DNA from: Phycisphaerales bacterium
GTDB taxonomy: Bacteria; Planctomycetota; Phycisphaerae; Phycisphaerales; UBA5793
Direction: 5' to 3'
DNA length: 64,000 nucleotides
Assembly (NCBI GenBank): GCA_043101845.1
Contig: JBICHN010000007.1
Location: 38,224 to 102,223 of the forward strand
Every line of letters starts with the position of its first letter. The stretch's first letter is position 1. Below, piece by piece: positions 16,593 to 63,542 of this stretch. Position numbers and translations under genes: made by a program. The notes under the pieces were generated by a model. That model searched no databases, was not told where the DNA came from, and saw only the letters and a program-made list of their open reading frames with translations.

Positions 16593-16641
16593 GCGCGACC
16601 GTTTCGAGCCGGCGGGCCGCTCGAGAACAGGAGTTTCGATC

Positions 16642-17667: not shown

Positions 17668-17728
17668 AGTTTCGATTCAGGCGTCGAGCTGAATAGCCCG
17701 GGCCGATCACGCGACTACCCTTGGGCCC

Positions 17729-18460: not shown

Positions 18461-18861
18461 TAGGCTCGGGCGAGCGTCGTGACGAGTTCGGTCGAGGTGA
18501 ACGGCTTCGTAATCCGCGGGGTCGAGAGGTACGCCTCCGGCACATGCGACTCGTCGTATCCGGTCGCCAGAATGTAGGGCACCTTCCGCCGGGCGAGTTC
18601 GTCCGCGACCGGAAACGCCGGCGTCCCGTCGAGGTTTACATCGAGCACCGCGAGTTCGGGCTCATGTTTGTCGATCGCCTTGAGCGCCTGCTCGATCTTC
18701 GCCGACGGTCCGATGACTACCGCTCCCTGATCTTCGAGGATCTCGCGGATCTCATCCGCGATGAGCGCGAAATCTTCCACCACGAGAACGCGACGACCCT
18801 CGAGAATCTGACGGGCGTCCGTTCCAGATCCTGCCACCTGGCTCATGTCGCTTCCTTTCAC
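18439..18861 (-). CDS. Single-domain response regulator (CheY-like receiver)
   Basis: Receiver-domain features: acidic pocket, phospho-acceptor D in LAVLDVNL, and a conserved K (…ITKPF). The start may be at 18861 (overlapping the HK stop by 4 bp) or at 18846. Confidence 0.75.
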   Translation of the reverse strand: MKGSDMSQVAGSGTDARQILEGRRVLVVEDFALIADEIREILEDQGAVVIGPSAKIEQALKAIDKHEPELAVLDVNLDGTPAFPVADELARRKVPYILATGYDESHVPEAYLSTPRITKPFTSTELVTTLARAYQNRAEA

Positions 18862-21800: not shown

Positions 21801-24800
21801 CCACTCGCCGCGCTCGATCACCTCCTGCATCCGGTCGCGTTCTTCCTCCTCTTCCTCTTCCGTCACAATGAGCGTTTCGATGCGGCGCCCGACCGCCTCT
21901 TCCTCGGTGAAGCCGAACAACGCTTCGGCGCCGCGTCCCCAGTAGGTCACGCGACCGTCGATGTCGGTGGCCACGACCGACTCCGTCAGATTCTCGAGCA
22001 ACTTCGCCTGGAACTCGAGACGCTGCGCCGCCTGTCGGCGCTCGATCGCGATCGCCGCCGTGCGGTTGAGGGCGTTGAGGATGCGCTGCTCGTCGACCGT
22101 CGGGCGGCGCGGCTGGGTGAAGTAGATCGCAAAGGTACCGAGCACTTCGCCGCCCGCCGTGCTGATCGGCGTGGACCAGCAGGCGCGGAGTCCGTGCCGA
22201 TCGGCGAGTTCACGGAACGGAGCCCAGCACGAGTCAGTCTGAATGTCTTCCGTGGTAAAGGCCCGGTTGAAGTGGGCCGCGCGTCCACAGGTGCCAACCT
22301 CCGGCCCCGTCGGTATGCCGTTGATCGCTTCGCGGTAGGCGGGATCCAGGCGCGGTCCGGCGCCGTCGAGCAGTCGCCGCGTTTCGGCGTCAAAGAGCAG
22401 AATCGACCCACGGACATCGTCGCCGCCCGCTTCGTCGATGATTTCGACGAGGCTCGCGAGCGTGCTCTCAATCGGATCTCCCGCGAGAATCCGTTCGAGG
22501 ATATCACGCTGCGCGTCGACGATGTGTTGCGCGAGCTTTCGCTCGGCGACCTCATGCTGCGATTCCTGGTAGAGCTGGGCGTTGTCGATCGCGAGGGCGC
22601 AGCGGCGGGCAATCTCTTCGATGAACGGCAGATCCGCGTCGCTCAGCGGCGATCGATTCACTTCGGTCACAAGCGTGAGCACGCCGAGCTTGCGTCCGTG
22701 CGCCACGAGGGGCGCGAAGATGGCGCTTTCAATACCGAGTTCGCGCACGATTCGATAGTGCTGATCGTCGTTTGTCGCGACGCGCAGGGTCGGCTCGTCA
22801 AAGTGCTCGATGACCTGAGGTCGGCCCGTGCGGAGCACCTCGTACACGCCCACCTCGGATGACGGATCGGGGGGATAGCGCTCGGTCAACTCTTCGGCGA
22901 ATCGGACCTTCTCCGGATCGGAATGCATGACGGTGGCGCGCCGCAGTGAGCCTTCCGCGGGGTCGAGAAGATCAACGACGCACCAGTCGGCGACGGCGGG
23001 CACGAGGGCGTCCGCGACGCGCCGCATGGTTTCCGTGTAGTCGAGCGAACCGCCGAGCGCCGCCCCTGATCGCGCCATCGCCTGGAGGGCGCGCTCGGCC
23101 CGCTTGCGGTCATGAATGTCGATCGCCCCACCGATGAACCCGGTGAATTCGTCGTCCGCATCGTGCATTGGCACGCCGCGGTTGAGCACCCACCGGTACT
23201 CGCCGCTCCGGTCGCGGATCCGATACTCGATCTCAAACGGTTCGCGGACCTCGAACGCGCGATCGAAGACGCCGTGCACGCTCGCCCGGTCGTCCGGATG
23301 CAGACCGCCCAGCCAGCCGGATCCGAGCTCGTCGTCGAGCGAGCGGCCGCGGAACTCGAGCCATTCGCGATTCACCCAGTTCAGGCTCTGATCCGGACTC
23401 GAGAGCCACACCATGACCGGAGCCGAGTTCGCCATCATGCGGAAGCGCTGTTCGCTCTCACGCAGCGCGTACTCCGCCTTCTTCCGGTCCGTGATGTCTT
23501 CATTGACGACGACGGCGCCGCGGACCGACCCGTCATCATCGCGAATCGGCACGGCGGAGTTCAGAATGATCTTGCGCGATCCGTCGAAGCATTCGATCTC
23601 GAGCGTCTCTTCGATCGTCGTTTCGCCGTGGTGGATGGCCCGGTATCCGGCCCACTCCTCGGCGGGCAACGGGTCGTCTTCGCCCGGACGCCACGCCTTG
23701 TAGACATGGAACTCGTCGGTCGGCACATACTCGGCGCCTTCCCAGATGCGCTCGCCCGCCGGGTTGCCGAGGATGATGCGGCCTTCTTCGTTGATGAGCC
23801 ATACGCCGACGGGAAGCGTCTGGAGCATGGCGCGCATCTGCTCTTCGCTCCGGCGCAAGGCTTCGATCGCGAGATTGCGCTCGGTCACATCGAGCAGCAT
23901 GTTGATCGCGCCAACCTGTCGACCATGCGCGTCGTAGAGCGGCTCAGGATTGGCGAGCACCTGGCGCCGCGTCCCGTCCGGTCGCTCGACGACGATCTCG
24001 GCGTCGCGGATCCGTCGACCCTCGCGGAGCGCGACGGCCATCGGGCAGGTGTCGAGCGGCATCGGCTCGCCGTTCGGGGAGTAGATCTTCCACGAGCCGC
24101 ACCAGAGATCCTTGCCGATCACCGGCTCCCGGCCCCAGAGCTTCACCGACGCTTCATTGAAGAGGGTGACGCGACCCTCCTGGTCGCAGGTGTAGATCGC
24201 CGCGGGGACGGCGCTCACGACCTCCCGGAAGCGTCGCTCGCTTTCGCGGATCGCCTCCTCCGCGAGTTTGCGCTCCGTGATGTCACGCACCTCGATGACC
24301 GTCGCCGCGTCGCCGGACTCGTCGATGACCGGCCGCGCCGAGCAGAGCACGGGGAACGCTTCGCCGTTCCTGCGGAAGAAGAGGTCCTCATGGTCGCGGA
24401 CTTCGAGGTGCTCCGGCAACGCCCGGTCGATCGGACACTCCTCGATCGGAAAAGCGCTTCCGTCCGGACGGGTATGGTGGATGTAGTTGTGCAGCGGTTG
24501 GTCGCTGATCTCGTCGAGCGTGTATCCGATCATCTCCTCCGCCGCCGGATTCATGAAGGTGCAGTAACCCTGCGCATCCATCATGAAGAGCGCCGCGGTC
24601 GCGTTCTCGGTAATCGCATGCCGGAGCTTCGCTTCGCGCACCGCTTCGCGTTCGGCGCGGAGCCGCGGACGCAGATCGCGAGCGACGGAGATGACATGTC
24701 GACGGCCCTCGATGGTCGTCGTGCTGATGCTGACCTCGACCGGTATGAGTTCGCCGGTCTTCGTTCGATGCACGCTGTCCCGCTGCATCTCTCCGCTCGC

Positions 24801-36879: not shown

Positions 36880-37202
36880 GTAAGCCCGGCTCTTGCCGAA
36901 CGGTCGCGCCGTAGGTTCGGCTCTTGCCGAACGGTTGTGCGTTCGTGGTTCAAGAGGGATTCGTGTAGTACGGAACGCGTGCGGCAGTTCGCCCGCCCAA
37001 CCGTCAGGCAACAGCCTGACCTACCGGGACGATCTCAATTCTCAAGTCTCAAATCTCCGATTTCAGATCTCAGATTTCAGATTTCAGATCTTCCGTCTCG
37101 AGCGCTGTCCCACCTGTGGCTTCCCGGAACCTCAGCCACAGCCACCCGATGGACAACGAAGTACCAATGGGTGGCTGTGGTTGGTCCGCAGGGAAACCAC
37201 AG
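36880..37202. repeat. Composite structured intergenic repeat, copy 2
   Basis: Starts 12 bp after the GspE stop; contains the gtaggttcggctcttgccgaacggt arm, the cgcccaaccgtcaggcaacagcctgacctacc arm, a tctcaaatc-type minisatellite, and the gccacagccaccc/gggtggctgtgg hairpin. Confidence 0.7.
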
Positions 37203-37249
37203 CGAATGAAACGACGGCGCCGGGTCCAGTGAAGGCGCACGATCGCCCT

Positions 37250-37662
37250 GTAGGTTCGGCTCTTGCCGAACGGTCGGTCGTTCGTAGTTCGAGCGGCGTT
37301 CGCGTTGAACGCGAGGCCTGCGCGAGATCGCACGCCCAACCGGCAGGCAATAGCCTGACCTACCGAATCGCCAACCCGCGCGTGTGCCACGGCCTTCCAG
37401 GCCGTGCGAATGGAACGAGGGCGTGGGTGACGAGGTCGGCCGGGGATGACTCGCGCGCCGTCCGCCGCCCACGCACGGCCGACACGGCCGTGGCACACGA
37501 GTTGATACGCTCGCCTCAAATCTCAAATCTCAAATCTCAAATTCCAGATCTTCCGCTCCGAGCGCCGTCCTCCCTGTGGCTTCCCCGAGCCTCAGCCACA
37601 GCCACCCAGCGCAAACGGGACAACGAAGGGGTGGCTGTGGTTGGGCCGCAGGGAAACCACAG
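37250..37662. repeat. Composite structured intergenic repeat, copy 3 (with a ~140-bp internal insertion)
   Basis: Same arm order as copy 2, in tandem with it. Confidence 0.7.
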
Positions 37663-37833
37663 GGCATGGAACGACTGTGTCCGTGACGAAGATCGCGCTT
37701 CAGCGTCTCCCCGATCCGATTCTGAGAAACGAATTGACGAATTCCGCGACAGTTCCCATCCTGGGGGTGGGGGCCGCTTGCATCTGCTTGGCGCCGATCG
37801 ATGTCCGGGCGACCCCGGATCGTGCGGCTGTAA

Positions 37834-39240
37834 TTGAGAGGGATCGAGATGTCGAGGAGAATATTCTGCATCGTGTCCGGTCTACTGCTATTGACCGGAG
37901 TCGGCGTCTCGTCCGGCGCCGCGGGTCCGCATCCCGTCGCGATCATCGACCTCGGCACGCTGGGGGGTGTCGGATCCACCGCACGAGGGATGAATGAAGT
38001 GGGTCAGGTGACCGGTGCAGCGCGCTCAGGATTCTCGACATTCAATCCCTATGTGTGGGAGCAAGGGGTAATGGCGCCGCTTTCAGGCGTCGGTATGTGC
38101 TGTGAAGGCGAGGGCTGGGAAATCGCCGAGACGGGGCATGCTGCGGGCGCAAGTGTAAGTGCAGACCAGCCTGCGTTATGGCGTGACGGTGTGGAGACCC
38201 CCCTTGGCACACTCGGGGGAGACAGCGGGCGAGCGCGGGCGCTCAACGACCTCGATCAGGTTGTCGGTGAATCTGAATTCGAGCCCGGCTCATTGCTGAT
38301 TCACGCCTTCTTCTGGGAAGACGGCGTGATGATCGATCTTCACCCGCCGTTCAGCGATGACCAGAGTGTCGCCTACGACATCAATAATAACTCGCAGATC
38401 GTGGGTCTCGCGTCGAATCCGAGCGGGGGAACACTGGCGGTTCTATGGGAAGAACTCGTCGCGACTGACTTGGGCTCACTCGGCGGATCGGTGAGTGTAG
38501 CCTACGGAATAAACGAACTGCATCAGATCGTCGGCTATTCACATGAGCCGTCCGGGTTCGGTCAACTCTTCTTTCGACGGGCCTACCTGTGGGAAAACGG
38601 CGAAATGCGATCGATTCACTTCGATTCATACTTCGACAGCAGCCGTGCGATTGACATCAACAACCTCGGCATGATCATCGGTGAGTACGACAATGGCGAC
38701 TTGGACGAGCGATCGCCGGCCGTCTGGTTGAGCCCTGATGGGCCGAGTCTGCATGTGGCGCGGATGCTTCCGCCGAACAGCCGGTGGGCGCCGCAGTGGA
38801 TGTTCCTCGAGGATCTCAACGACTCGGGGCAGATCGTCGGACTCGGCTGGCACTTTCAACCGGAGCGCGGCGCTTTCGAGGACCGCGGCTTCCTCATCAC
38901 GCCGGTCGAGCACGAGTTCGCGCTTTCCGATGTCGCGCCCGGGATCGCCGGGCAGGTGAACGGGATCAGGGCGAGCGGACTCGAGCCGGGCGAGCGCGTG
39001 TACTTCCTCTACTCGCAGCGTGGCGGCGGAACCGTCCTGCCCATGTGCGAGATCCTCGACGCGACGCTCCAACTCGACTACCCGTCGGTCATCACGAGTG
39101 TCCGGGCCGACGCAAACGGCGAGGCGCTCCTCCTCGTCGAGGTCCCCGCCGCGGCCCGCGCGCGAGGCGACATCCTCATCCAGGCCGTGGTCCCCTCGTC
39201 GTGCAAGCTGAGCGAGTTGCGCGTGGTGCGGTTCGAGTAG
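37834..39240 (+). CDS. Secreted HAF-family extracellular repeat protein
   Basis: Signal peptide; repeated …LGTLGG…A…IN…GQVVG…HAFLW units. Confidence 0.75.
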   Translation: MRGIEMSRRIFCIVSGLLLLTGVGVSSGAAGPHPVAIIDLGTLGGVGSTARGMNEVGQVTGAARSGFSTFNPYVWEQGVMAPLSGVGMCCEGEGWEIAETGHAAGASVSADQPALWRDGVETPLGTLGGDSGRARALNDLDQVVGESEFEPGSLLIHAFFWEDGVMIDLHPPFSDDQSVAYDINNNSQIVGLASNPSGGTLAVLWEELVATDLGSLGGSVSVAYGINELHQIVGYSHEPSGFGQLFFRRAYLWENGEMRSIHFDSYFDSSRAIDINNLGMIIGEYDNGDLDERSPAVWLSPDGPSLHVARMLPPNSRWAPQWMFLEDLNDSGQIVGLGWHFQPERGAFEDRGFLITPVEHEFALSDVAPGIAGQVNGIRASGLEPGERVYFLYSQRGGGTVLPMCEILDATLQLDYPSVITSVRADANGEALLLVEVPAAARARGDILIQAVVPSSCKLSELRVVRFE

Positions 39241-39446
39241 GTTCGGCTATTGCCGAACAGTTGGGCGCGCGTGGTCGAGCGGGATTCGAGCCGAACGAAC
39301 GACCTGCAAGAGATCGGCCGCCCAACCGGCAGGCAATAGCCTGACCTACCGGGACGATTTCAAATCTCAAATCTCAGATCTCAGATCTTCCGCTTGGAGC
39401 GCTGTCCTCCCTGTGGCTTCCCCAAACCTCAGCCACAGCCACCCCG
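39237..39446. repeat. Composite structured intergenic repeat, copy 4 (truncated; lacks the distal hairpin half)
   Basis: Begins on the TAG stop of the HAF gene. Confidence 0.65.
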
Positions 39447-39477
39447 CGCCGAGCCTGAACGAATACCCTCTCCGTCT

Positions 39478-39531
39478 CTTCGTCTCTCCGTCTCTCCGTC
39501 TCTCCGTCTCTCCGTCTCTCCGTCTCTTCCG
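39478..39531. repeat. Tandem 8-mer minisatellite (ctctccgt)x~7
   Basis: Directly visible tandem repeat. Confidence 0.8.
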
Positions 39532-39600
39532 AAAAAAACGAAGAGCCGGACTCGCGCCCGACTCTCCGTAACCCGCAATTGAAATCTCAGTTTCCGTTCG

Positions 39601-43948: not shown

Positions 43949-44067
43949 TGACCCGTCCAAAGCCCATTGAGCGCCCACCAAGCCGGACTGGAGCCCGATG
44001 ACGCAACGCGTCATCAGCGGAGGTCCGGTTCCGACGCCCACCCGCCGCCCCCACGCAAACCCCAGCC

Positions 44068-44300
44068 CCACCCAAAAAGAAAGAGAGGCGCGCCCACCGA
44101 CGCGCCTCCCCGAAATCTCAAATCTCAAATCTCAAATCTCAAATTTCAGATCTCAATTCTCCGACCTCCGACCTCAGATCTCAAATCAAACCCTCGGGTG
44201 GCACAGGCCTCCGCGCCTGTGCGAAGCTCGAGCTTCCTCATCCAAAAGGAAAGAGAGGCGCGCCAACCGACGCGCCTCCCTGAAACCTCAAATCTCAAAT
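44068..44300. repeat. Duplicated hairpin (gaggcgcgcc-caccg-acgcgcctc) plus tctcaaatc minisatellites
   Basis: Two near-identical ~60-bp units at 44068-44125 and 44245-44300. Confidence 0.6.
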
Positions 44301-44358
44301 CAACTCAATCCGCCCGCGCCTCCACCCCTCCGTGCCTCCGCGCCTCCGTGCCTCCCCG

Positions 44359-45732: not shown

Positions 45733-46223
45733 AGATCCTTCGGCGAGAGTTCATAACGCGTCGTCGTCTGAGGAGGCAGAGCGACAAAGACCCATCCGTC
45801 CGACCGGCGCCCGCTTGAAACGAGGCGTCGGCGTGACTTGAACGGCTGATCTGGTTGTGCGCGAGAGTGATCTTCCTCCCCGCGCGCAAAGACCGCGGCC
45901 CCACGCGGTCATGCCACCAACCTCCACCTCCGACGAACTATTGCACACTTCCCCACAACAACGAGTCTGACCATCCATACTAGGGATTCGAACCGACGAG
46001 ACGACCACCACGGAAATCCCCGGCGCGAACGAACCCCAACCATCCCATGAACCCCTCGCCCGCCCGCCGAGATGCGGCTCGCGCGCGAAATGTGCCATGC
46101 GAGAGACGCATGAGCGATCGACCCGATCGCGATCCCGATTGAGCCGAACCCGCCACACGCCGCCCATCCGCCCGATAGCCCGCCCCCCAGCCCGAACCCC
46201 TCCACACGCCGGAAATCACGCCG

Positions 46224-46470
46224 GAGATGGTAAAAGCTCGGCGTTCTCCGGATTCGACGCTCGAATCACACCGTCGCGTCCATACTCGCACCCATCGATC
46301 GAACGATCGCGCCCCTCCTCCACGCCGGAGATAAGCCCGGCGTTCTCCGGATTCGACGCTCGAATCACACCGTCGCGTCCACACTCGCACCCATCGATCG
46401 AACGATCGCGCCCCTCCTCCACACCGGAGAGAGTAAAAGCTCGGCGTTCTCCGGATTCGACCCTCCGAGC
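46224..46470. repeat. Tandem ~110-bp repeat (2.4 copies), each unit containing the ccggaga-N-ttctccggattcgacgc hairpin
   Basis: Direct sequence comparison of 46224-46333, 46334-46423 and the partial unit 46424-46470. Confidence 0.75.
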
Positions 46471-46667
46471 CTGTGCGAAGCGCGCTCACACCGTCGGCGT
46501 AACGCGCGCCGGCCTCAACCGCACTCTCTTCCGTTCTCCAACTAATCGCGCCCGGGGTTTTCTCGGTCGTGCAACCCGGACATTGCCACACAATCACCTT
46601 TCGATAAACTATCTCACGACTGCGGAGGGCGCACTCAATCTCATCGATTCCTGTCGCCGGAATTCAC

Positions 46668-48404
46668 GTGCGAAAACGACTCGTCATTCTTGGCTGTTCT
46701 GCGACGAAGAAGCCCACACCGGGACCTCTTCCCGCGGTTGATCGCTATGACGGTCCGATGTATCGGGTACTGCGGTCCTTTCTTCGAAAACACCGCTGGC
46801 CCTCGGATCTCTCAGTGGCGGTCTTGTCTGCAGAACACGGACTCATCGGCGGATTGACGCCGATCGAGCCCTACGACCGTCGAATGTCGGGAGACCGGGC
46901 CGCGGAGATTGCGCCGAAAGTCGCGAAGACACTCGAAGCTTGGAAGCCTCTGCATTCGCGCGTCGACCTGGTGCTTGGTCAGTCATATCTGCCTGCAATT
47001 GAGGCGACCGCAAGACAGTGTTGGCCAAGTACCACCTCGGTCGCAGGGGGTGGGATCGGCATGAAGCTCTCGTACCTGCGGAAAGAACTCCATCAGAAGG
47101 CTCAACCTGCCCATGCTCCGGATCCCGACGACTCCCCGCGAAAGCGGGGGCGTCCCGCCTACTTTCTCCCGGACTGGGATGACTTCGTAGACGCTGATTT
47201 CGACTTCGTGAGAGACCGATTCTCATCAAACGACCGTGTCTCCCGTCAGGAACTTCACTGCTCCCAACTTGTCGATTGCCTCGCCGATGGAATCCTCGTC
47301 AGCCTCGCACAGAGCACTACAGGGAAGGGGTTGCTGCGTTCACTGGAGGCGTCATCACCCGATTCCCTCGCGCCGACATCGGTGAAGAAACACTTTGGGC
47401 TGAATTCGAGGCAGTGGGCCTTCGGCGACTGCGGCGCATTCAGCTATGTCAACGAACACGAGCCGACGATAAGTATCGAGCAAGCCGTCACAATTTACGA
47501 GTTGTTCGGATTCGACCTCGGTGCCAGCATCGACCACATCCCGGTTCCAATTGTCATTCGCGAAGGAAAGCGCAGAAGACTGACCAGGGCGGAGCGTAAG
47601 GCACGCTTGGCGTTGACCGTTCGGAACGCGGATGCATTTATTTCTGAGTGGCGATACCGCGAATGCCGTTTTCATCCTGTCGGTGTCATTCAGGGCATCA
47701 CGTCGGAGGACTACGCGAACTCCGTCTTCGCCTACAGCGAAATGGGGTATCGCCGGCTCGCGTTGGGTGGTCTTGTCCCGCGTTCGGATCGCGAGATTGT
47801 GGAGATCGTCACGGCCGTCACTGATGCGTTCAAGCAGCTCCGCGAGCGCCCATGGCTGCACCTCATGGGCGTGTATAGACCCGAGATTCAGTCACAACTT
47901 CGCGCCATGAAGGTCGATAGCTTCGACAGCGCCACCTACTTCCGCAAAGCATGGCTCCGCTCCGGCCAGAACTACCTCGGCGCCAACGGCCAGTGGTACG
48001 CCGCCATCCGCGTCCCACCCTCGCGCGACCCTCGCACCGCCAAACGCCTCAAGGCCTCTGGCAAGTCAGAGAAGAAGATTCGCCAACTCGAACTCGCAGC
48101 CCTCCGCGCACTTCGTGGTTACGCCAGCGGCCGAGTCAAACGCGTCGACACCTGCCTCAAACACGTCATGGCCTATGACAGCTTGCTCGACCGAGCTGAA
48201 GCCGAGCAGGTCTCATTCGCCGACAGCTACCGCCGCACGCTTGAAGATCGACCGTGGGAGAAGTGCAAGTGTGACATCTGCAGGTCAATCGGCATTGATG
48301 CGCTGATCTTCCGCGGCCTGAACCGAAACAAGCGGCGGGGCGCGCACAATACGTTGAAACTCTACGAGAATCTCGGTTCGAGCCGTGGGACTCGACAACG
48401 ATGA
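46668..48404 (+). CDS. TGT-fold (DpdA-like transglycosylase) protein with a ~190-aa N-terminal domain of unknown function
   Basis: C-terminal Zn subdomain CxCxxC-x25-H (KCKCDICRS…RGAHN), exactly as in tRNA-guanine transglycosylases; a TIM-barrel-like middle region; lower-GC codon usage than the host. Confidence 0.55.
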   Translation: MRKRLVILGCSATKKPTPGPLPAVDRYDGPMYRVLRSFLRKHRWPSDLSVAVLSAEHGLIGGLTPIEPYDRRMSGDRAAEIAPKVAKTLEAWKPLHSRVDLVLGQSYLPAIEATARQCWPSTTSVAGGGIGMKLSYLRKELHQKAQPAHAPDPDDSPRKRGRPAYFLPDWDDFVDADFDFVRDRFSSNDRVSRQELHCSQLVDCLADGILVSLAQSTTGKGLLRSLEASSPDSLAPTSVKKHFGLNSRQWAFGDCGAFSYVNEHEPTISIEQAVTIYELFGFDLGASIDHIPVPIVIREGKRRRLTRAERKARLALTVRNADAFISEWRYRECRFHPVGVIQGITSEDYANSVFAYSEMGYRRLALGGLVPRSDREIVEIVTAVTDAFKQLRERPWLHLMGVYRPEIQSQLRAMKVDSFDSATYFRKAWLRSGQNYLGANGQWYAAIRVPPSRDPRTAKRLKASGKSEKKIRQLELAALRALRGYASGRVKRVDTCLKHVMAYDSLLDRAEAEQVSFADSYRRTLEDRPWEKCKCDICRSIGIDALIFRGLNRNKRRGAHNTLKLYENLGSSRGTRQR

Positions 48405-50779
48405 CACGCTTTCCTCCTTTGAAAGACGCAGACGAGTTCACCGCCAGCCTTGCTTCGGCGGTAGTACGATTCCAAGAGCATGGATTGGACGAACCCCAAG
48501 CCGCCGCCACGTTCGCGCCGCCGTCTGAGCCACTTCACGTCGTTGCGGGTCCCGGTAGCGGCAAGACCACTGTGCTGGTCCTTCGAATCCTCTACCTCGT
48601 CTTTGTTCACGGGTATCGCCCCGCTGAGATCATCGCCACGACGTTTACACGCAAAGCGGCCTCCGAAATGCGCTCGCGTGTCCTGGGATGGGGATACGTG
48701 CTGCGCAATCACCTCATTGAGGCGTCTGACTCCGAAGAAGTCCGGGGGTGGTTGCGCACCCACTGCGAATTCAGCGATATTCGCCTAGGCACCTTCGATA
48801 GCCTCGTTCAGGAGTTCATTGCGGAGCACGGCCCGCGAGAAGAAGACCCACCTGTGGTCATTGAACCGATCACTGCAACCTCGATCATGCTCCTCGACGG
48901 GTTGATCTCGAATAATGGCCTCCATAACAGCGCGACACTCCGGCAGCACCTTACGGACATTGGGTACTGGCCCATCAATGCACCGCGCCTCGCCGGATAC
49001 TTGCGGCAACTTTCAGATCGACTCGCCAACGATCTTGTTGACAAAGACGCCCTCGCAGCATCGTCGCCTGCGATGCAGAGGGCGTGCGCTGCAATCGATG
49101 CGTTTCGAGAGTCTCTTGCACGGCGACAGTTGATCGACTATAGCGGCCTGTCAGAGCGGTTCCTTACTTTGGTGATAGACGGTGCGCTCGATGATGGCTT
49201 GCAGCAATACCGAGTGATGGTGGTTGACGAATTCCAAGACACGAACTGCCTTCAGGAAGCGTGCTATTTTGAGATGTACTCACGATTCTTAGGTGATGAT
49301 CAGTGTCCAGCATCACTCACAGTTGTCGGTGACGACGACCAATCTATCTTTCGTTTCCGCGGCGCAACCGTCGAAATCTTTACCGACTTCCCGAATCGAA
49401 TCGCTACGCACACAGGCGGGCCTGTGTGCGATACGACGTTTCTTAGCAGCAACTTCCGGTCGCGCCCTGGCATACTGTCGCACTTCGACAGGCTTGTCGA
49501 TCAGCCGGACTTTGCGGACGCTAGAGTAGCCGATAAACCGAGTCTCGTTGCACGGACCCACGGTGGAGCACCAACCCTACAAGGTTTGCCCGTACTCGGC
49601 ATGTTCGACGACAATCGGGGCACGCTCGCAAATCGGTTGCGCGACATGCTCATAGCCGTTTTTCGCGGAGATGGGTTCCGCGTCCAGTGTGTTGATGCAG
49701 AATTTGTGATTCAAGGAACTGAAGATCACGACTTTGCGGATGCCGTTTTGCTGGGTTCCTCTATGGTGGAGAGAAAACCTGAACGCAAAGATCCGCTCAA
49801 TCTCACTGGCCACCTGCGCGCAGCGCTCGAACCTGATGTTCCGGTATTCAATCCTCGCGGTCGCGCTCTGCACGACGTTCTGGACGTCCAGCGGTTGCTC
49901 GGCTTGTTCCTTCAATGCACCGATCCAAATCGCGCGATCCAGACGAGCATCCCGTGGCTTCAAGCGCAATTCGGCGACACGATGGATGGGTGGAGACAAC
50001 GAGCACAGGATCTTGCGGCTTCAAACCCGGCACCGGGAAACCTAGCGCAGTTCCTGAACGACTGGAGTACTAGGACGTGGAGAAATCGCCGCCGAACCCT
50101 GAGGGATTGGCCGGCGATTGAACTGTTGTTTACGCTGACAACTTGGCTGCCGCGGTTCGTTGAGGATCCTGAGTACCAAGTGTACTTAGAGGCGATTGCG
50201 CGGGCCGTTGAACAATCCACACCGCTGTCCGCATTCGGCGGCAGGATCGTTTTCGACGACAGATTCGATGGTCCTTCCGTCAAACATTTGCTAATCAACG
50301 TGCTAGCTCCGATTGCGGGTGGAGAGATCGACGTTGATGAGGAATTGATACCACACGTTCCTAGACATTGGTTCCCCATGATGACGATTCACCAAGCGAA
50401 AGGGCTTGAGTTCCCCTTGGTGATCGTCGACGTCGGTAGCGGAAATGGACACGAGATTCGCGACTTCATGCGGTTCCCGACAAGGCCGTCGGCGGTCCAT
50501 CATGACGAGGACATCGTGGCGCCGCATTCAGCTCTCGGAAACCTGCGTCAGGCGCGGGATTCGATCACTCGGGCGCGTGATGACCTTAAGCGAAAGTACT
50601 TCGTCGCCATGAGCCGCGCCCAATCCGTATTGATCCTCGTAGGACACACGAGGTTCATTGACGGGAACCCACTACCTTCCATTCAAGTGGGTAGCCGATA
50701 CGACGAAACGCGCATATGGCGCTATATACCAGCCGCACAATGCTCGACGGTCGACACAGATACTGTCGCACTGATTTGA
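48401..50779 (+). CDS. UvrD/PcrA-like superfamily-1 DNA helicase
   Basis: Walker A AGPGSGKTT, motif II VVDEFQDTN and motif VI TIHQAKGLEF; its start overlaps the upstream stop (ATGA). Confidence 0.8.
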   Translation: MTRFPPLKDADEFTASLASAVVRFQEHGLDEPQAAATFAPPSEPLHVVAGPGSGKTTVLVLRILYLVFVHGYRPAEIIATTFTRKAASEMRSRVLGWGYVLRNHLIEASDSEEVRGWLRTHCEFSDIRLGTFDSLVQEFIAEHGPREEDPPVVIEPITATSIMLLDGLISNNGLHNSATLRQHLTDIGYWPINAPRLAGYLRQLSDRLANDLVDKDALAASSPAMQRACAAIDAFRESLARRQLIDYSGLSERFLTLVIDGALDDGLQQYRVMVVDEFQDTNCLQEACYFEMYSRFLGDDQCPASLTVVGDDDQSIFRFRGATVEIFTDFPNRIATHTGGPVCDTTFLSSNFRSRPGILSHFDRLVDQPDFADARVADKPSLVARTHGGAPTLQGLPVLGMFDDNRGTLANRLRDMLIAVFRGDGFRVQCVDAEFVIQGTEDHDFADAVLLGSSMVERKPERKDPLNLTGHLRAALEPDVPVFNPRGRALHDVLDVQRLLGLFLQCTDPNRAIQTSIPWLQAQFGDTMDGWRQRAQDLAASNPAPGNLAQFLNDWSTRTWRNRRRTLRDWPAIELLFTLTTWLPRFVEDPEYQVYLEAIARAVEQSTPLSAFGGRIVFDDRFDGPSVKHLLINVLAPIAGGEIDVDEELIPHVPRHWFPMMTIHQAKGLEFPLVIVDVGSGNGHEIRDFMRFPTRPSAVHHDEDIVAPHSALGNLRQARDSITRARDDLKRKYFVAMSRAQSVLILVGHTRFIDGNPLPSIQVGSRYDETRIWRYIPAAQCSTVDTDTVALI

Positions 50780-50789
50780 GGCCTACGCG

Positions 50790-51998
50790 ATGACCATTGC
50801 GCGAAGAGAACGGGCGTATGAGATTCCACCCTATTCACTAACCGGGGATGTTCTGTCGTTTCGGCGGTGTGGTCTCCAATACCGTTACTACAACCGAAGC
50901 AAGCTGCCCCCATCGCGGCCAGTCCAGATGTGGACGGGCGAGTTCCTGCACGGAGTGATGGAGGACGCGTATCGACAGTGGCCAGACAACCCACATTTCC
51001 CTTGGCCGTTTGTCGAAGCTATCGATGGCCTACCGAGGCTTGACGAGCCAGCACCTGATGAATGGCCCCGAAACCACGTGGGTAGGATGGGACTGCGTAT
51101 GGAGAAGCATCTGGCAGCTGCAGGGCGCAGTTCCCGCAACGCGCAAGCACGATTCAATGCGTATCGAAGAGCAGCAGAGGCGATCAATGTTCTGGGTCCC
51201 GACCTCTTTCCGCTAATCACGACTGCGGAAGAGCCAATTTCGGGCACCCGTCCGATTGTGTTGCCTGCCAACTCACCGCGAAATGCAGACAGATATGAAC
51301 TGAATGGCATCGTGGATGTGATTTCGAGTGTCCGACTTCAGGAACATCAGGACAATGATCTCGTTGCGATGCTGGCCGAACACCTTCCCGACGAGGATGA
51401 GGTGTTCGACGTTATTGTCGACTACAAAGGCATGCGCAGACCCTCTCGCGGCGTCCAGAATGATCCAATCTGGGATGATCACGCTTGGCAGATCCAAACG
51501 TATGCCTGGCTTCGTAGCAAGAGGGAAGATCGGGCGCGCGTCGGGTGTGGTCTCATCATCTACCTGAACGAACTCTACCCGTCGCGTCAGGACATGAAAG
51601 CGTTGCGCGCCGATCGAGAAAACGGGACATCCGACGTGCTCCCTCCGAGGGGGTCCGCCGACGACTACGCCATTTTGGGAGTCGCAGCAAATGCGGATGA
51701 AGATGGGGACGAGCCAACCGATGCAGCCTTGTCACTTGCATTCCGTCTCGAACGGGCGGTGCGCGTCATCGGCGTTGACGAACAGAGCCAGCAGAACGCC
51801 GTGGATCGGATTCACGCGGTTGTCGAGGACATTGAAGAACGCGTAAGTCGCGAGCACGCCGATGGAGAGATTCGCAACAACTGGCCCGCGAACGGACGCC
51901 ACCGGGACTGTGTCGCGTGCGACTTCAATGACACATGCCCGCAGCCCGCATGGGTCCGCGATGGACTAGCCAGAACGCCACCGCGAGCACCCGGCTAA
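50790..51998 (+). CDS. PD-(D/E)xK nuclease, Cas4/RecB-family-like, with a 4Fe-4S Cys cluster
   Basis: D…DYK core (IVDVIS…VIVDYKG); N-terminal Cys plus C-terminal CxxCx5C (CVACDFNDTC) as in Cas4/AddB nucleases; 10-bp gap to the helicase gene. Confidence 0.6.
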   Translation: MTIARRERAYEIPPYSLTGDVLSFRRCGLQYRYYNRSKLPPSRPVQMWTGEFLHGVMEDAYRQWPDNPHFPWPFVEAIDGLPRLDEPAPDEWPRNHVGRMGLRMEKHLAAAGRSSRNAQARFNAYRRAAEAINVLGPDLFPLITTAEEPISGTRPIVLPANSPRNADRYELNGIVDVISSVRLQEHQDNDLVAMLAEHLPDEDEVFDVIVDYKGMRRPSRGVQNDPIWDDHAWQIQTYAWLRSKREDRARVGCGLIIYLNELYPSRQDMKALRADRENGTSDVLPPRGSADDYAILGVAANADEDGDEPTDAALSLAFRLERAVRVIGVDEQSQQNAVDRIHAVVEDIEERVSREHADGEIRNNWPANGRHRDCVACDFNDTCPQPAWVRDGLARTPPRAPG

Positions 51999-52004
51999 TC
52001 GAAT

Positions 52005-52373
52005 CTAGCCGGAGTAAACACACCCCGCGGTCTCCGTCTCGCGAACCTCAATCCGCGATAACCCCGGCACCACTCCATCGAGTTGCCCCCAAATCCACCG
52101 CGCGAGATTCTCAACGGTGGTCACGCCAATCTCCTCGATGTCGTTGAGATTCTGGTGATCCAGACGCTTGATCACCGGCTCAACCGCGCGCTTGAGATCA
52201 GCAAAGTCAATGATCCAGCCCGTCTCCGGGTCGACCTCACCCGACACATACACGATAAGCCGATACGAATGCCCATGGACATTCCGGCACTTGTGTCCCT
52301 CTGGCAGATGCGGCAACGAATGCGCCGCCTCAAACTTGAACTCCTTGTAGATCTCCAACGAAACGGCTCCCAA
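52005..52373 (-). CDS. queD: 6-carboxy-5,6,7,8-tetrahydropterin synthase
   Basis: 122 aa, near-colinear with E. coli QueD, including the CxxxHGH motif (CRNVHGHSY) and the C-terminal TAGCVY. Confidence 0.9.
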   Translation of the reverse strand: MGAVSLEIYKEFKFEAAHSLPHLPEGHKCRNVHGHSYRLIVYVSGEVDPETGWIIDFADLKRAVEPVIKRLDHQNLNDIEEIGVTTVENLARWIWGQLDGVVPGLSRIEVRETETAGCVYSG

Positions 52374-56133: not shown

Positions 56134-56572
56134 CCTCACGCTCGCCGCGGGGCACGACGCTTTGCGGCGACGGGTATCTTGTCGCCTGTGAGAGGCGATG
56201 GGATCTGCTCTTTGAAAAGTGAACAGTTGGGAATACGACGCCGCGAGGATGTGCCGTAACTCCGAGTCTTTCACAAGGTTCGGCGGTTGCGGGATCCCAT
56301 GGCGCGAGAATCACAGCTCGCGTCGGGAAGCATCCTTGTGACGCCCCAATTCTTTGAATGAGGAATTGTGAGGTGACGGATGATTCCGGAACTGTCCCGT
56401 CGATCTTAGCCGACGACGGGGCCCGGTGGCGCCTGCGGACATGTGTGCGTGCATACATGGGAGTGGGTGTCACGGGAAGACCGGCCCGATCGGACTAAGC
56501 CCCGGTCGGGTGACCAGGTCGACCTTCATCTGACGCATTCCGGCTTCTTCGGAAGTCGGAGCGATGATAATC

Positions 56573-58091
<1,519 letters not shown>

Positions 58092-58830
58092 GATACCTTA
58101 GACGCGGTCCGAGAGCGATCTCAACCGCGATACAAGTCAACGCAGCCTCGTCCGCTAAGACCCTCACCGGTCCGGCGGAAACGCACGCGGCGACGCGTGC
58201 GGATGGCGCCGAATTCCCCAACTGTTCGCAATATAACCAGCAACCCCGGCTGACTTAGCTCAGTCGGGGTTGTTGTGTTTAAGGCGGAAGGCACGGGGGC
58301 ACGGGGGCACGGAGGCACGGAGGGAAGAGACGGAGAGACGGGGAGGCGGAGAGACGAAGTGTGCGGGAGGGACGGAGGCACGAAGGCACGGGGGCACGAC
58401 GGGAAGAGACGGGGAGACGAAGAGACGGGGGCGCGGGGAGGGGCAGAGGAATATCTCAGATCTGAGATTTGAGATCTGAGATTCTTATGCGGCCGAGTCA
58501 GGGGCATCGACACTGTGCGGCTTTGAGAACTCGCCGCGCAAAGACACGCCTGAGCTCCGACAAATCTCAAGGGATACCGCGTGATTTCGAGTCGCATCAA
58601 ATACATACCAGCAGACCTTCGCTCGCCGGCGCCAGCGCCCGACATGACAAACGAGGCCCCCGCGTGATTCCGCTATGACTTTCTGGTAAGGTGTGCCGCG
58701 TGGGCGCATGGCGATCGTCGCCGCGCGAAACGAGAAGCACGGCGGCGTCGCGCCTTCGGTCCGTCACATTCAACCGTTCCATCCGGTCACACTTCGGCGC
58801 CTCGTTCCGGCGCCGCGCGGAGACTGCTCC

Positions 58831-59913
58831 ATGTTCGAAGATCGCGAAACGCTCTGGGTCGTTCATATCGGAAGGCAGGACGGCCTGCCGACGCGGGCCC
58901 GCGACGAAGGCTTCGTCGCCATCGGATGGCCGCGGCTTGGCGATCTTCGTCAATACAAGACGCGCGACGCCATGCGCGAGGCGATGAAGCGGGCATGGCC
59001 GAACTGGTCCGAGCATCGGGTCCGCGCCTGCTACGGCCAGGTCTTTCGCTTCGCGCACAAGATGCAGGTTGGCGACCCCGTCGTGTTTCCCATCAAGGCG
59101 ACCCGTGAGATCGCGATCGGGCGAATCTCGAGCGACTACCGGTACCACCCCAACTACCACGAGACCGACGGCGAAGACTATCCGAACTTCCGCGATGTCG
59201 AATGGCTCAAGATCGTGCCGCGCACCGCGTTTTCGAAGTCCGCGCTGCACAGCTTCGGCGCCTTCCTCTCCGTGAGCACTTCCGACGATCATCTCGAAGA
59301 GGTCATCGCCGTGCTGAACGGCCAGGACTCCTCCTCTCCTGCCGATCGCACGCCCACGATCGGGGGCGGAGTCGTCAAACGGACGCCATCCGTCTTGCCC
59401 CGGGACGACGATGAGGACGCCGACGATCCCACCGACCCCGGCATGAGCCTGCTCGAATCAGCGCAACAGGAAACTGAAGATTACCTGCTCAAGCGATGGT
59501 CGCGCACCGGCGCCGAGTTCGAGCATGTCGTCGCCGCGGTGCTCGAGGCGATCGGATACACCGCGACCGTGACGAGCGCGAGCGGCGATCACGGCGTCGA
59601 TGTCATCGCCCATCCCGACCCGCTCGGCCTCGAGCCGCCCTTCGTGAAGGTCCAGGTCAAGAGCGGGACCGGCTCGGTCGGCGAGCCGGCGGTGAGCCAG
59701 CTCCTCGGATCGCTGTCGGAGGGGGAGAAGGGGATCTGCGTCGCGCTCGGCGGCTTCACGACGCACGCGCTCTCGAAGGCCCGGAACTCATCGCGTGTGA
59801 GCCTCATCGACGCGAAACAGTTCGTCGCGCTCTTCCTCGAACACTACGAACAGATGAACCCGCTCTGGCGGGCGCGGTTCCCACTCAGCCGCGTGTATGT
59901 GCCGAGCGCGTGA
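58831..59913 (+). CDS. Mrr-family type IV restriction endonuclease (Mrr_N winged helix + Mrr_cat)
   Basis: C-terminal PD-(D/E)xK Mrr_cat (…FEHVVAAVLEAIGY…GDHGVDVIA…VQVKSG…); the start could be further upstream (58693). Confidence 0.65.
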   Translation: MFEDRETLWVVHIGRQDGLPTRARDEGFVAIGWPRLGDLRQYKTRDAMREAMKRAWPNWSEHRVRACYGQVFRFAHKMQVGDPVVFPIKATREIAIGRISSDYRYHPNYHETDGEDYPNFRDVEWLKIVPRTAFSKSALHSFGAFLSVSTSDDHLEEVIAVLNGQDSSSPADRTPTIGGGVVKRTPSVLPRDDDEDADDPTDPGMSLLESAQQETEDYLLKRWSRTGAEFEHVVAAVLEAIGYTATVTSASGDHGVDVIAHPDPLGLEPPFVKVQVKSGTGSVGEPAVSQLLGSLSEGEKGICVALGGFTTHALSKARNSSRVSLIDAKQFVALFLEHYEQMNPLWRARFPLSRVYVPSA

Positions 59914-60860: not shown

Positions 60861-62858
60861 TCACCCCACGCCCGCCTCCGCGAGGATTTCGCGTTCGACA
60901 TACCGTCGGAAGTCGCGGGCGCGGGTGAAGCAGCGGTAGCCGATCTGGTTCGCGAACGCGATCGTCTCCGCCGGCTCGTTGAGCAGCACCGCGACCGGCT
61001 CGCTCAACTCTTCGCGCAATCCCGCCGGCCAGACGAGGTCGAACACGGCGCGCTGCTCGCCGGTCTCCACGTCGGCGTACTCGTACCCCATCTCGCCCTC
61101 GGTCAGGCCCTGCTCGACGACCCAGGCGTTGATCGCTTCGAGTTCGCGCTCCTCGTCTTCGCTCGAGATGCCGCCGAGCACGACCACCTCGGGCGCACGC
61201 CCCGCCGTCGACGCTTCGTCATCATCGGCCGCCGCGGTCACCGGCGCCGTCGCGTCGGCGTCCATCCAGTGCGTCTCGCCGTGCAGCAGTTCCGCGAGCT
61301 GCCGGTTCGCCTGCGCTGCGAGCAGTTCCCGCCGCGCTTCGAGGAAGTCGAGGTACCGGTCCAGCTTCCAGAGCGCCGGGTCCTGCGGGATCCACTGCGA
61401 CGCGAGCGCCCCCGGATGCGCCTTCTCCACCTCGCGGAAATACTCCTCGGGGAATCGATGGCTGATGTCGAGGTTCGTCTCTTTCGTGAGGAAGCAGAAG
61501 TTCGCGATCGCGTTGACCTCGGCGCGCCGATGCCCCGCCGCGTAGAGGCGCGCCTTCGGAAAGATGTGGTGCACTTCGAGGCGGCTCATCTTGCCGAGCA
61601 GACTCGCCTTGAGCGGCAGACCCGTGCCCCAGTCGCGCGCCTCGCCCATCCGCGTGAGCATGTAGAGCACCGGATAGAAGCGCGCGCCGAGGCTCGCCCC
61701 GCTGAAGTGACCCGGGCGCACGCGCAACTGGCCGTGCCAGAGACGCAACTGTTCGAGCAGTTTGTCGACGCCGCCGTCGGGTCCTTCGAGCGCTGCGAGA
61801 TCCTGGTCGATGTACGACTCGGTCGATCCGGAGAAGCGCCCCCACATGCCCGCCTGGGCGAACCAGAAGAGGAGCTTGTCGCGTTCGCGATCACTCAACT
61901 GCTTCGGCCGCTCGTCGAGGTAGCGCACCATGACCGGCACGGCGAAGCGGCCGAAGAAGACGCGATTGTGATCGAGGCCGAGTCGGCCCGCGATGAGGTT
62001 GAGGCAGTAGTCGATGTGCTTCGTCGCGCGCTCGAGCGCCTCGCGCACCTCTTCAGCGTCACGATCGTGCAGATGCTGAAACTTCGCCTCGCCGGTAAGA
62101 ACGGTGTTCACCGACCGGAGCAGCCAGTCGAGGTTGAAGCGGTACCCGGCCTTCTTCCATTCCTTGAGCTTCACCTTCATCGTGTCGCGCGCCTCGGGCC
62201 AGTCGGCGCAGATCTTCGCGAGCGCGAGGTCGCCCTTTGAAAGCTTCGTGCCGCCGCTGTTCACGCGGTTGAAGATGTCGACGACGATATCGATCGACTT
62301 GTCGGCGCCCGTGACCTCCTCGACATGGAGGTCGATGTCGACAATCCCGATGAGCCTCGAGATGCGCCCGACATACTCACCCACGCGCGGCGCCAGTTCC
62401 GGGTTCGCGCTCAGCCGCCCGACGAGCGGGCCGATGCCCTCGTTCCCGGCCTTCATGAGTTCGGTGACATCGATCCAGAGCGGATCATCCTTCATCTTGA
62501 CCGGCTGGAAGAACTCGAAGACCTCGTTCTCGAGATGGAACATGAGTCCGGTGAAGGCCTTCGCCTTGCCGTCGAAGAACTTCGGCGGCCGGCCGCGCAC
62601 GACGCCGTACAGCGAGGTCATGCGCTGCTGTCCGTCGAGGAGGAGCTTCACGACGCCGGGCGCGAGTTGCCCGTCGCCGCGATGCGTCGCGGACTTCGAC
62701 TCGGTCGCCCAGACGAGCAGCCCGCCGACGGGGTGGCGGCGGTAGAGGGAATCGAACAGGCCGCGGACCTGGTCGCGGCCCCAGACATAGCCGCGCTGGA
62801 ATTCGGGCAGGGCCATGTGTCCGGAATCGATGTGGTCGAGGACGGTGGAGATTTTCAT
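60861..62858 (-). CDS. GmrSD-like type IV restriction endonuclease (DUF262 + DUF1524)
   Basis: N-terminal DUF262 motifs (LPEFQRGYVW, DGQQR) and C-terminal DUF1524 HNH-like motif (EVHHIFPKA); start at MKISTVLDH (CAT at 62856-62858). Confidence 0.8.
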   Translation of the reverse strand: MKISTVLDHIDSGHMALPEFQRGYVWGRDQVRGLFDSLYRRHPVGGLLVWATESKSATHRGDGQLAPGVVKLLLDGQQRMTSLYGVVRGRPPKFFDGKAKAFTGLMFHLENEVFEFFQPVKMKDDPLWIDVTELMKAGNEGIGPLVGRLSANPELAPRVGEYVGRISRLIGIVDIDLHVEEVTGADKSIDIVVDIFNRVNSGGTKLSKGDLALAKICADWPEARDTMKVKLKEWKKAGYRFNLDWLLRSVNTVLTGEAKFQHLHDRDAEEVREALERATKHIDYCLNLIAGRLGLDHNRVFFGRFAVPVMVRYLDERPKQLSDRERDKLLFWFAQAGMWGRFSGSTESYIDQDLAALEGPDGGVDKLLEQLRLWHGQLRVRPGHFSGASLGARFYPVLYMLTRMGEARDWGTGLPLKASLLGKMSRLEVHHIFPKARLYAAGHRRAEVNAIANFCFLTKETNLDISHRFPEEYFREVEKAHPGALASQWIPQDPALWKLDRYLDFLEARRELLAAQANRQLAELLHGETHWMDADATAPVTAAADDDEASTAGRAPEVVVLGGISSEDEERELEAINAWVVEQGLTEGEMGYEYADVETGEQRAVFDLVWPAGLREELSEPVAVLLNEPAETIAFANQIGYRCFTRARDFRRYVEREILAEAGVG

Positions 62859-63542
62859 GGGGGTGGGGGTTCCTCGAGTTCGGGGACTGGGTCGGCGTGT
62901 GTCGGGTCTGTGGTCCTCTTGTGATCGTCGCGGCGACCGCTCCGAGGCGGGCGCCGCCACGCGACGCGACGCGACGCATTGTGTCACAAGGTAGCAGAAA
63001 TTGGGGGTGGGGGAAGGGGGATACCAGTCGACCTCGAGCTTGACACGTCAGCCAAGACTCTCGCATCGACAGTCTCCAACTGACGGAAGGGCGGGACGCC
63101 TGATTCGAGCAGTTCGTCAACTGTGATATCGCGCCAGCCTTGCGCACGCACGATTCCAAATCGTCCGGAAGTGGCACTGGGACGACGCCAGCGAGCGATC
63201 TTCATGCGACGCAGTTCACATAGACCTTCCCAATACTCGATCCATCGCTCTTCGAACTTCGCTCCGACCTGCCAGCCTCGCGGTCGGCGGCATCTTCCGT
63301 CGAAGATCGATCCATCCTTTGCGTACGGGACGCTTATCAACATGACATCGCTATTTGCCACAGTTTCTCCTTTCAAAGGGGATTAAGGCGACAGAATGGG
63401 CGATGCTGGTGCATCGCCCATGCGTTTCAGGTACTCAAATGCATGTGATGACTGATTGAGAGAGGCAGCAGTTGTCGTCGCCGCCGTCTTTGGATTGTGC
63501 GTCGAATCTACCCTCCGTGGGATGTTCTGGCTTCGGCAAATG

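Follow-up and report, generated by a model that had tools for sequence, protein, structure and literature searches.

Dpd in its canonical form is an established restriction-modification system, with modification of the DNA by dpdA-C and restriction by dpdD-K. In S. Montevideo, the ATPase of DpdB is required for the insertion of preQ0 by DpdA, and DpdC, whose Pfam domain is DUF6884 (GATOR-GC paper), converts 2'-deoxy-7-cyano-7-deazaguanosine (dPreQ0) in DNA to dADG (2'-deoxy-7-amido-7-deazaguanosine). Gene neighborhoods have been considered as well: Tsai et al. (2017; PMC5567051) mentioned, as data not shown, a Cas4-like nuclease and a helicase among the most frequent neighbors of tgt genes, gave phage 9g, M. 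aeolicus and D. thermolithotrophum as examples, and raised a possible role of these pairs in restricting unmodified DNA. Here we analyze a stretch of 64,000 nucleotides from a Phycisphaerales bacterium (contig JBICHN010000007.1, positions 38,224 to 102,223), referred to below as the window, in which a gene for a DpdC-DpdA fusion protein is directly followed by genes for a UvrD-like helicase and for a nuclease with a Cas4/AddB-type cysteine signature. We suggest, with a probability of about 0.6, that the helicase and the nuclease act as the effectors, or restriction arm, of a compact, DpdB-less restriction-modification system of the Dpd type.

The four genes and their products

The functional unit consists of the fusion gene, the helicase gene, the nuclease gene and a convergent queD gene, and covers positions ~46668-52373 of the window. 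Its features, with a promoter match, are:

46668-48404, plus strand: DpdC-DpdA fusion gene, 578 aa, GTG start, TGA stop
48401-50779, plus strand: helicase open reading frame (ORF call), 792 aa
50790-51998, plus strand: nuclease open reading frame (ORF call), 402 aa
52005-52373, minus strand: queD, 122 aa, convergent with the nuclease gene, whose stop is 6 nt away
46583-46610, plus strand: weak sigma-70-like promoter match TTGCCA-16-TAAACT from a consensus scan, 58 nt 5' of the DpdC-DpdA start

A preliminary description of this stretch had placed the two open reading frames of the pair at exactly these coordinates, but the unit it drew around them (48401-51998) was too small. It had also called the helicase and nuclease genes translationally coupled. 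An ATGA overlap does exist, but it joins the stop of the fusion gene (48402-48404) to the start of the helicase gene (48401); between helicase and nuclease there is the tight spacing of an operon, with 10 nt from the helicase stop to the nuclease ATG and a GAGG that overlaps the helicase TGA stop. Similar distances recur in relatives, where the median gap is ~5 nt from DpdA to helicase and ~13 nt from helicase to nuclease, start calls being approximate. Promoter and terminator sites were no more numerous in the region than in shuffled sequence, and an Rfam scan gave no riboswitch or other family near the cassette, and no preQ1-riboswitch control, its sole match being a 16S rRNA gene.

The product of the first gene had been described as a TGT-like (tRNA-guanine transglycosylase-like) protein taking the place of a sensor. 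The TGT likeness is real, while the domain architecture points to a different role. Residues 1-~160 are a DUF6884 domain (DpdC-like, YaaA-fold), matched by Pfam at residues 6-138 with 40 bits (cut-off 30), and residues ~162-570 are a DpdA DNA-guanine transglycosylase domain, matched by the Pfam TGT model with 38.5 bits (cut-off 26.3), by the NCBIfam equivalog NF041059 with 341.9 bits (cut-off 200), by the PADLOC DpdA model with 326.6 bits and by the solved S. Montevideo DpdA (7UI4) with 221 bits (E = 2e-64). Since both domains are in one chain, the gene is classified from its sequence as a DpdC-DpdA fusion, a predicted DNA-modifying enzyme rather than a sensor, which argues for the logic of a Dpd-type restriction-modification system and not for that of a sensor-effector pair.

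The catalytic residues shown or proposed for S. Montevideo DpdA (Asp95, Asp130, Asp256, Phe99 and Gly206/207; Gedara et al.) correspond to D254, D289, D420, F258 and G367/368 of the fusion protein, and these counterparts, together with the zinc-type residues C533/C535/C538/H560, are invariant in 10 fusion proteins. The CxxxK (C10-K14) and LSAxxG (L53-G58) motifs of the DUF6884 domain are likewise invariant among the fusions. His181 of S. Montevideo DpdA is replaced by Q342, at a position where bacterial TGT carries a glutamine. The queD product is a 6-carboxytetrahydropterin synthase (Pfam PTPS, 132.2 bits), an enzyme of the preQ0 pathway.

The helicase can be assigned by sequence to the UvrD/PcrA type of superfamily 1A (SF1A). 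It matches the Pfam UvrD-helicase model PF00580 with 151.7 bits (cut-off 23) as well as AAA_19 and UvrD_C, and in an alignment of 32 sequences with 38-85% identity the motifs are invariant throughout: Q33 (Q motif), AGPGxGKTT 49-57 (motif I), TFTxxAA 80-87 (Ia), DExQD 276-280 (II), VGDDDQSxxRFRGA 309-322 (III), N351/R353/S354 (IV), TxHQxKGLExP 662-672 (V) and V735/R739 (VI). This full set (Q, I, Ia, II-VI) is accompanied by the four-subdomain fold of SF1A, and the complete SF1 motifs announced in the preliminary description are thereby borne out. The protein has no nuclease domain, and a conserved insert at approximately residues 470-660 is specific to the family. Among solved helicases, the nearest by sequence are M. 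tuberculosis UvrD1 (100 bits), then UvrD, PcrA, AdnB, Rep and AddA, with GajB matching weakly at 36 bits. The AlphaFold2 (AF2) model (mean predicted local distance difference test score, pLDDT, 88.2) retrieves UvrD/PcrA/Rep in Foldseek at E-values of 1e-22 to 2e-26, the best being UvrD at 2e-26, and also matches AddA, AdnB and RecB with template modeling (TM) scores up to 0.59. Orthology to UvrD, PcrA or Rep is out, the NCBIfam equivalogs giving 96-116 bits against cut-offs of 911-1144, and the protein is no ortholog of any other named helicase either (cut-offs of 700-1150 over the whole set).

For the nuclease, the sequence indicates a PD-(D/E)XK enzyme (Pfam PDDEXK_1, 40.4 bits; cut-off 22) with a predicted four-cysteine signature of the Cas4/AddB type (4Fe-4S-type). 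An alignment of 76 sequences with ~45-50% overall identity leaves invariant H54, D176, D211-Y212-K213 and Q234...Y238 (QxxxY), as well as the four cysteines C27, C374, C377 and C383, the last three forming CxxCx5C, so that both the D...D-x-K and the cysteine motifs first seen in the single sequence are upheld. Motifs kept so strictly at this level of identity are not due to chance, and the invariance of catalytic residues in both the nuclease and the ATPase argues that enzymatic activity is under selection. A profile of the nuclease had no sequence match to any PDB chain even at E<=1, and the protein is therefore placed by fold comparison only: its AF2 model (pLDDT 85.7) best matches the Fe-S nuclease domain of AddB (4cej_B, E = 9e-6), followed by the Cas4-family ACE1, AddA, MGME1 and AdnA. 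The resemblance of the pair to a split AddA-like helicase-nuclease, proposed in the preliminary description, is thus seen in the folds of both proteins, AddA/AdnB/RecB for the helicase and the AddB domain for the nuclease. When 1.84 billion cluster representatives were searched exhaustively with a hidden Markov model (HMM), 501 relatives came up at a threshold of E<=1e-3 and 161 at the stricter E<=1e-30; the nuclease family is a discrete one of modest size. At its C-terminus (51984-51998) lies a nearly invariant PPxAPG tail, predicted to be disordered (pLDDT below 50), which could act as a peptide that docks onto the helicase or onto DpdA.

Linkage and distribution of the pair

The nuclease served as the seed for a set of 80 genome loci plus 3 more, distributed over ~17 bacterial phyla and the archaeon Methanoregula, in which neighboring genes were identified with phmmer. 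The helicase gene lies immediately 5' of the nuclease gene in 82 of the 83 loci, and a DpdA gene lies within 10 kb in 65; where at least 9 kb of sequence is present on both flanks, the count is 50 of 56. Seeding with the fusion protein gave 261 metagenome stretches confirmed as relatives, 80 of which were fetched and 57 were informative (at least 3.7 kb downstream). Among these 57 loci the helicase is found in 49 and the nuclease in 47. The association between the pair and Dpd is thus reciprocal, at 89% from the nuclease and 86% from the fusion. The queD gene occurs in 17 of the 57 and adjoins the cassette in many related loci (e.g., L015, L028, L034, L041, L044, L071).

The two proteins of the pair are also tied to each other. 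Their distance matrices correlate with r = 0.945 (38 loci), and a 1047-aa protein encoded on a Halomicrobium plasmid unites them in a single chain that follows the order of the genes, its residues 8-746 covering the whole helicase (E = 2e-51) and 780-972 the N-terminal two-thirds of the nuclease (E = 3e-14). The helicase and the nuclease are partners.

Four arrangements of these genes were evident. In the first, which is that of the studied window, of L003 and of many others, the fusion gene is followed by helicase, nuclease and sometimes queD. The second has an unfused DUF6884 gene, then helicase, nuclease and DpdA (Methanoregula, L078; also L076). In the third, found in alpha- and betaproteobacteria (Bradyrhizobium plasmid pB41S5, Ensifer, Sphingomonas, Acidovorax, Variovorax), a DpdC-like gene, dpdB-dpdA-dpdB and queCDE adjoin the pair without dpdD-K; the two DpdB genes are bona fide (421 and 486 bits). 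The first gene of these proteobacterial clusters (unk318) and several neighbors had no Pfam or NCBIfam match, and the sole basis for calling unk318 DpdC-like is a phmmer match to the Picosynechococcus fusion protein. The fourth arrangement places the pair beside a complete Dpd island (SNF2, DEAD, DpdG, AAA) in Sorangium, Polyangium and a metagenome-assembled genome (MAG) of the Bacillota. In Sorangium and Polyangium, an 87-aa ScoMcrA_N protein is encoded directly 5' of the helicase (L001:7289-7552, L087:7261-7524).

The GATOR-GC survey lists Acidovorax and others among Dpd islands 'lacking the restriction operon'. The Acidovorax locus L064 carries the helicase-nuclease pair, which probably accounts for many of the Dpd islands earlier scored in this way. 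Conversely, there are fusion loci without the pair, in which an unannotated ~625-aa protein is followed by a HerA/DUF87 ATPase (L098:3930-7636, L144:4342-8027, L110:9544-13409, L100:3066-6919). Here the modification enzyme seems to be combined with another effector module, and since a HerA-type set occurs in the place of the pair, the position fits a slot for a motor-driven effector.

The pair is patchily spread over the ~17 phyla and is also found on plasmids, and the defence neighbors in related loci include TIR, toxin-antitoxin and Abi genes. In the window, the three cassette genes have a GC content of 56-59% compared with ~65% overall, and their GC content at third codon positions (GC3) is 0.61-0.68, that of queD 0.72 and that of the surrounding ordinary genes 0.8-0.9, which indicates horizontal acquisition. 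No tRNA gene is present within the 64-kb window, and no integration site was seen.

Searches in viruses were nearly empty: tblastn with the nuclease against 50,697 phage records gave no match at E<=1e-5 and one 48-residue match at chance level at E<=1, and a single locus was found among 2.9 million viral contigs (IMG/VR). The pair is cellular, not viral, and we rejected a phage origin or an anti-restriction role on these grounds; given that the phage records hold no homolog, the pair of phage 9g belongs to a different lineage. A further observation concerns the 38-kb Picosynechococcus plasmid NZ_CP014001.1 (L085), which carries a 691-aa DpdA and a NurA/ATPase pair along with the helicase-nuclease pair, and on which a second, short tRNA-guanine-transglycosylase-like gene lies between two DEAD/DEAH helicase genes (16180-21751).

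Candidate roles of the pair

We suggest the following scenario for a restriction arm. The DpdC-DpdA protein, supplied by queD and the host queuosine pathway, would mark self DNA with dPreQ0/dADG, the DpdC-like domain probably turning the inserted base into its 7-amido form. The helicase and the nuclease would assemble into a complex working like a split AddAB/AdnAB enzyme, in which the UvrD-like motor would translocate on and unwind DNA with ATP and the nuclease would cut the displaced strand; together they would destroy incoming DNA that does not carry the 7-deazaguanine mark. This scenario builds on the identities of the proteins, their intact motifs and folds, the operon, the two-way linkage, the co-evolution and fusion within the pair, the island context and the absence from phages, and a defence-effector role, as first put forward in the preliminary description, remains the best reading.

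Several points weigh against it. Modification of the DNA, restriction of unmodified DNA by the pair and assembly of the three proteins into one complex are steps that we infer. The weakest point of the scenario is that DpdB is lacking: no such gene (DGQHR/ParB-like ATPase; phmmer with DndB/DpdB) was found at 36-62 kb of the window or in any fusion-type genome locus, nor among the Pfam-scanned neighbors, and modification may work differently here or need the helicase. Of the preQ0 pathway, the window holds queD alone. The sequences reveal no mechanism by which the modification would be read. The distances of the pair and of the fusion gene correlate only moderately (~0.39), which suggests that modification and effector modules have been exchanged; in Sorangium, Polyangium and the Bacillota MAG the pair adds to dpdD-K instead of replacing it; and in 6 of the 56 full-flank loci, DpdA is missing from the surrounding 10 kb.

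With DpdB missing from all fusion-type loci, though its ATPase is needed in S. Montevideo, the pair might instead serve modification, the helicase replacing DpdB as the ATP-driven opener of DNA and the nuclease processing or repairing base-exchange intermediates. The ATGA overlap of the dpdA stop with the helicase start and the short gaps that recur in relatives would suit such a role, as would the recovery of the DUF6884 member YfjM as a DNA-lesion interactor in the literature. We nevertheless regard it as unlikely. The proteobacterial loci with two DpdB genes retain the pair, which argues that the helicase is not a simple substitute for DpdB; phage DpdA systems modify DNA heavily, yet the pair family has no phage homologs; base exchange needs neither an invariant nuclease active site nor Fe-S cysteines; and the alternative HerA-type module suits an effector slot better.

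A comparably low likelihood attaches to the pair being an autonomous helicase-nuclease module of defence or repair that is merely co-localized with Dpd genes and acts independently of 7-deazaguanine. Two of the six full-flank loci without DpdA are from Bradyrhizobium, and the one of them that was inspected lies in the context of a conjugative element (ArdC, ParB); in myxobacteria, helix-turn-helix (HTH) or transposase genes separate the pair from the complete Dpd island that it borders; the pair is found in coexistence with dpdE-H; and the moderate co-evolution with DpdC-DpdA points the same way. However, a two-way association of 89% and 86% is far too strong for casual co-residence in islands, the genes belong to common operons in which reading frames overlap or nearly do so, and in Methanoregula the pair sits between dpdC and dpdA.

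It is also conceivable, with no better odds than the two preceding roles, that DpdC-DpdA, helicase and nuclease are one machine that both writes and reads 7-deazaguanine, the motor using ATP to open the DNA for preQ0 insertion in DpdB's stead and the motor-nuclease degrading DNA processively, in the manner of AddAB, until a mark is met. The nuclease would then be switched off by the mark, a Chi-like 'self' signal encoded in chemistry. If true, this would be a new mode of self/non-self discrimination, in which a base mark is read by a translocating SF1 helicase-nuclease and not by a site-specific endonuclease.

A housekeeping role of the pair in recombination and repair, as an ortholog of AddAB, RecBCD or AdnAB, which the fold resemblance to AddA/AddB, AdnAB and RecB might suggest, is highly improbable in view of equivalog scores 5-10-fold under the cut-offs for AddA, RecB, UvrD, PcrA and Rep, the lack of an AddB-type inactive helicase domain, the atypical composition, patchy phyla and plasmid copies, and the small size of the family (161 representatives at E<=1e-30). 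The preliminary description had raised homologs found exclusively as housekeeping addAB genes as an argument against its proposal; what was found are scores far under the AddA cut-off, low GC content, a patchy distribution and defence neighbors.

Surroundings of the cassette and comparison with known systems

A few kb from the cassette, the window encodes a protein with an Mrr_cat restriction-endonuclease domain (58693-59913, plus strand, 84.6 bits) as well as a type IV restriction enzyme of the GmrSD/DUF262 kind (60861-62987, minus strand, 87.6 bits), and with these two genes the region resembles a defence island. A complete bacterial 16S rRNA gene (56572-58085, plus strand, 1503 bits) lies nearby and is unlinked: the Mrr-like and GmrSD coding genes, and not a 23S rRNA gene, are found 3' of it. 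Unlinked rRNA genes are common in Planctomycetota, which the 16S rRNA gene fits.

The 936-bp non-coding stretch 5' of the DpdC-DpdA gene contains a 99-bp unit repeated in tandem ~2.5 times with 97% identity (46217-46465), every copy with the internal palindromes CCGGAGA...TCTCCGG and GATTCGA-CGC-TCGAATC. No additional copy of the core motif tested is present elsewhere in the window, and the repeat is possibly a regulatory element or the remnant of a mobile element. Composite intergenic repeat elements at 36880-37680, 39237-39535 and 44066-44301 combine a 7-nt microsatellite (ATCTCAA/ATTTCAG) with conserved 90-160-nt blocks and long hairpins, include a run of the 8-nt CTCTCCGT at 39468-39535, and yield spurious open reading frames with translations of the 'SNLKSQISNLKFQIS' kind. 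A very large open reading frame of 2526 aa (18858-26438, minus strand) has typical coding composition.

Among known restriction-modification systems, Dpd is the largest. The cassette described here cuts its chemistry down to three proteins and queD, with one fused writer that does without DpdB and a candidate two-protein effector made of well-understood components, and the family is present in ~17 bacterial phyla and a methanogen. It offers a small and tractable model for the reading of the 7-deazaguanine mark and for self/non-self discrimination, and also a compact enzyme for site-specific insertion of deazaguanine into DNA. It is likewise a candidate for catalogs of defence systems, in which PADLOC and NCBIfam currently name the DpdA part only.

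Model comparisons with AddA, GajB and Cas4, the check proposed in the preliminary description, place the pair outside all three families, and the Gabija- or Hachiman-like logic suggested there is not sustained. Hachiman is dismissed because the helicase belongs to SF1 and not, as HamB, to SF2, and because no HamA (DUF1837) partner is present; no Ham model appears among the best 25 of the 45 PADLOC matches of the helicase or among all 4 of the nuclease. Gabija shares with the cassette a UvrD-like helicase, GajB, whose models are the best PADLOC matches of our helicase (up to 93 bits). These matches, however, cover generic UvrD motifs only and reflect general UvrD similarity, no GajA (OLD/TOPRIM) is encoded among the three cassette proteins or their neighbors, and the partner here is a PD-(D/E)XK Fe-S nuclease in a module tied to a modification enzyme.

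Cas4 and the Argonaute-associated ACE1 (PDB 9iab) resemble the nuclease in their RecB-type motifs, four-cysteine signature and fold (TM ~0.63 normalized to ACE1), and the nuclease has, as read from its sequence, both the RecB-type motifs and the four Fe-S cysteines that characterize Cas4. In contrast, it is twice the size of Cas4, and assignment to Cas4 by model fails (TIGR00372, 16.9 bits against 65; PADLOC Cas4 models, at most 19 bits). Neither cas genes nor an Argonaute gene are among the neighbors within ~10 kb on each side, arrays elsewhere in the genome not having been searched; in related loci, the neighbors are Dpd genes instead.

AddAB and AdnAB are similar in having an SF1A UvrD-type motor and, in the AddB domain, the same nuclease fold with one N-terminal cysteine plus CxxCx5C, and in the partnership of helicase and nuclease, for which Halomicrobium provides the fused form. 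The pair differs in that it consists of one motor and one nuclease, whereas helicase-like and nuclease domains are present twice in AddAB as well as in AdnAB; its 402-aa nuclease is free-standing, its linkage is to DNA-modification genes and not to housekeeping repair, and no Chi-recognition domain is identifiable. It is not an AddA equivalog (TIGR02785, 96.9 bits against 707.65; TIGR02784, 93.7 against 860.75), and with AddB only the nuclease-domain fold is shared, there being no helicase-like body and no AddB match in NCBIfam or PADLOC.

The pairs noted by Tsai et al. (2017) likewise place a helicase and a Cas4-like nuclease next to a DNA transglycosylase, and the novelty claimed in the preliminary description is reduced to that extent. 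That report, however, neither defined a family nor tested a function, and we found no publication that defines, names or tests the pair family, the cluster figures of Thiaville 2016 and Yuan 2018 lying outside the search. BRC systems and the halobacterial BRIGADE also combine modification genes of the Dpd type with differing sets of motors and nucleases, whereas their BREX, YprA and STAND components are absent from the cassette.

With the S. Montevideo Dpd system (dpdA-K), finally, the cassette shares a bona fide DpdA with the same catalytic residues, a DpdC-type DUF6884 domain, an adjacent gene of the preQ0 pathway, a horizontal island, and an ATP-dependent motor and a nuclease beside the modification genes. 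It differs in the fusion of DpdC with DpdA and in doing without DpdB. The restriction set of Dpd itself comprises SNF2/YprA helicases, BrxC-like ATPases and a nuclease of the PLD type; neither protein of the pair matches a Dpd model (DpdD-K in NCBIfam or PADLOC), and the neighboring genes are unrelated. In place of that set, the cassette encodes a single UvrD-like helicase of SF1A and a single Fe-S nuclease of the PD-(D/E)XK type, in a unit of four genes and ~5.7 kb as compared with ~20 kb for Dpd.

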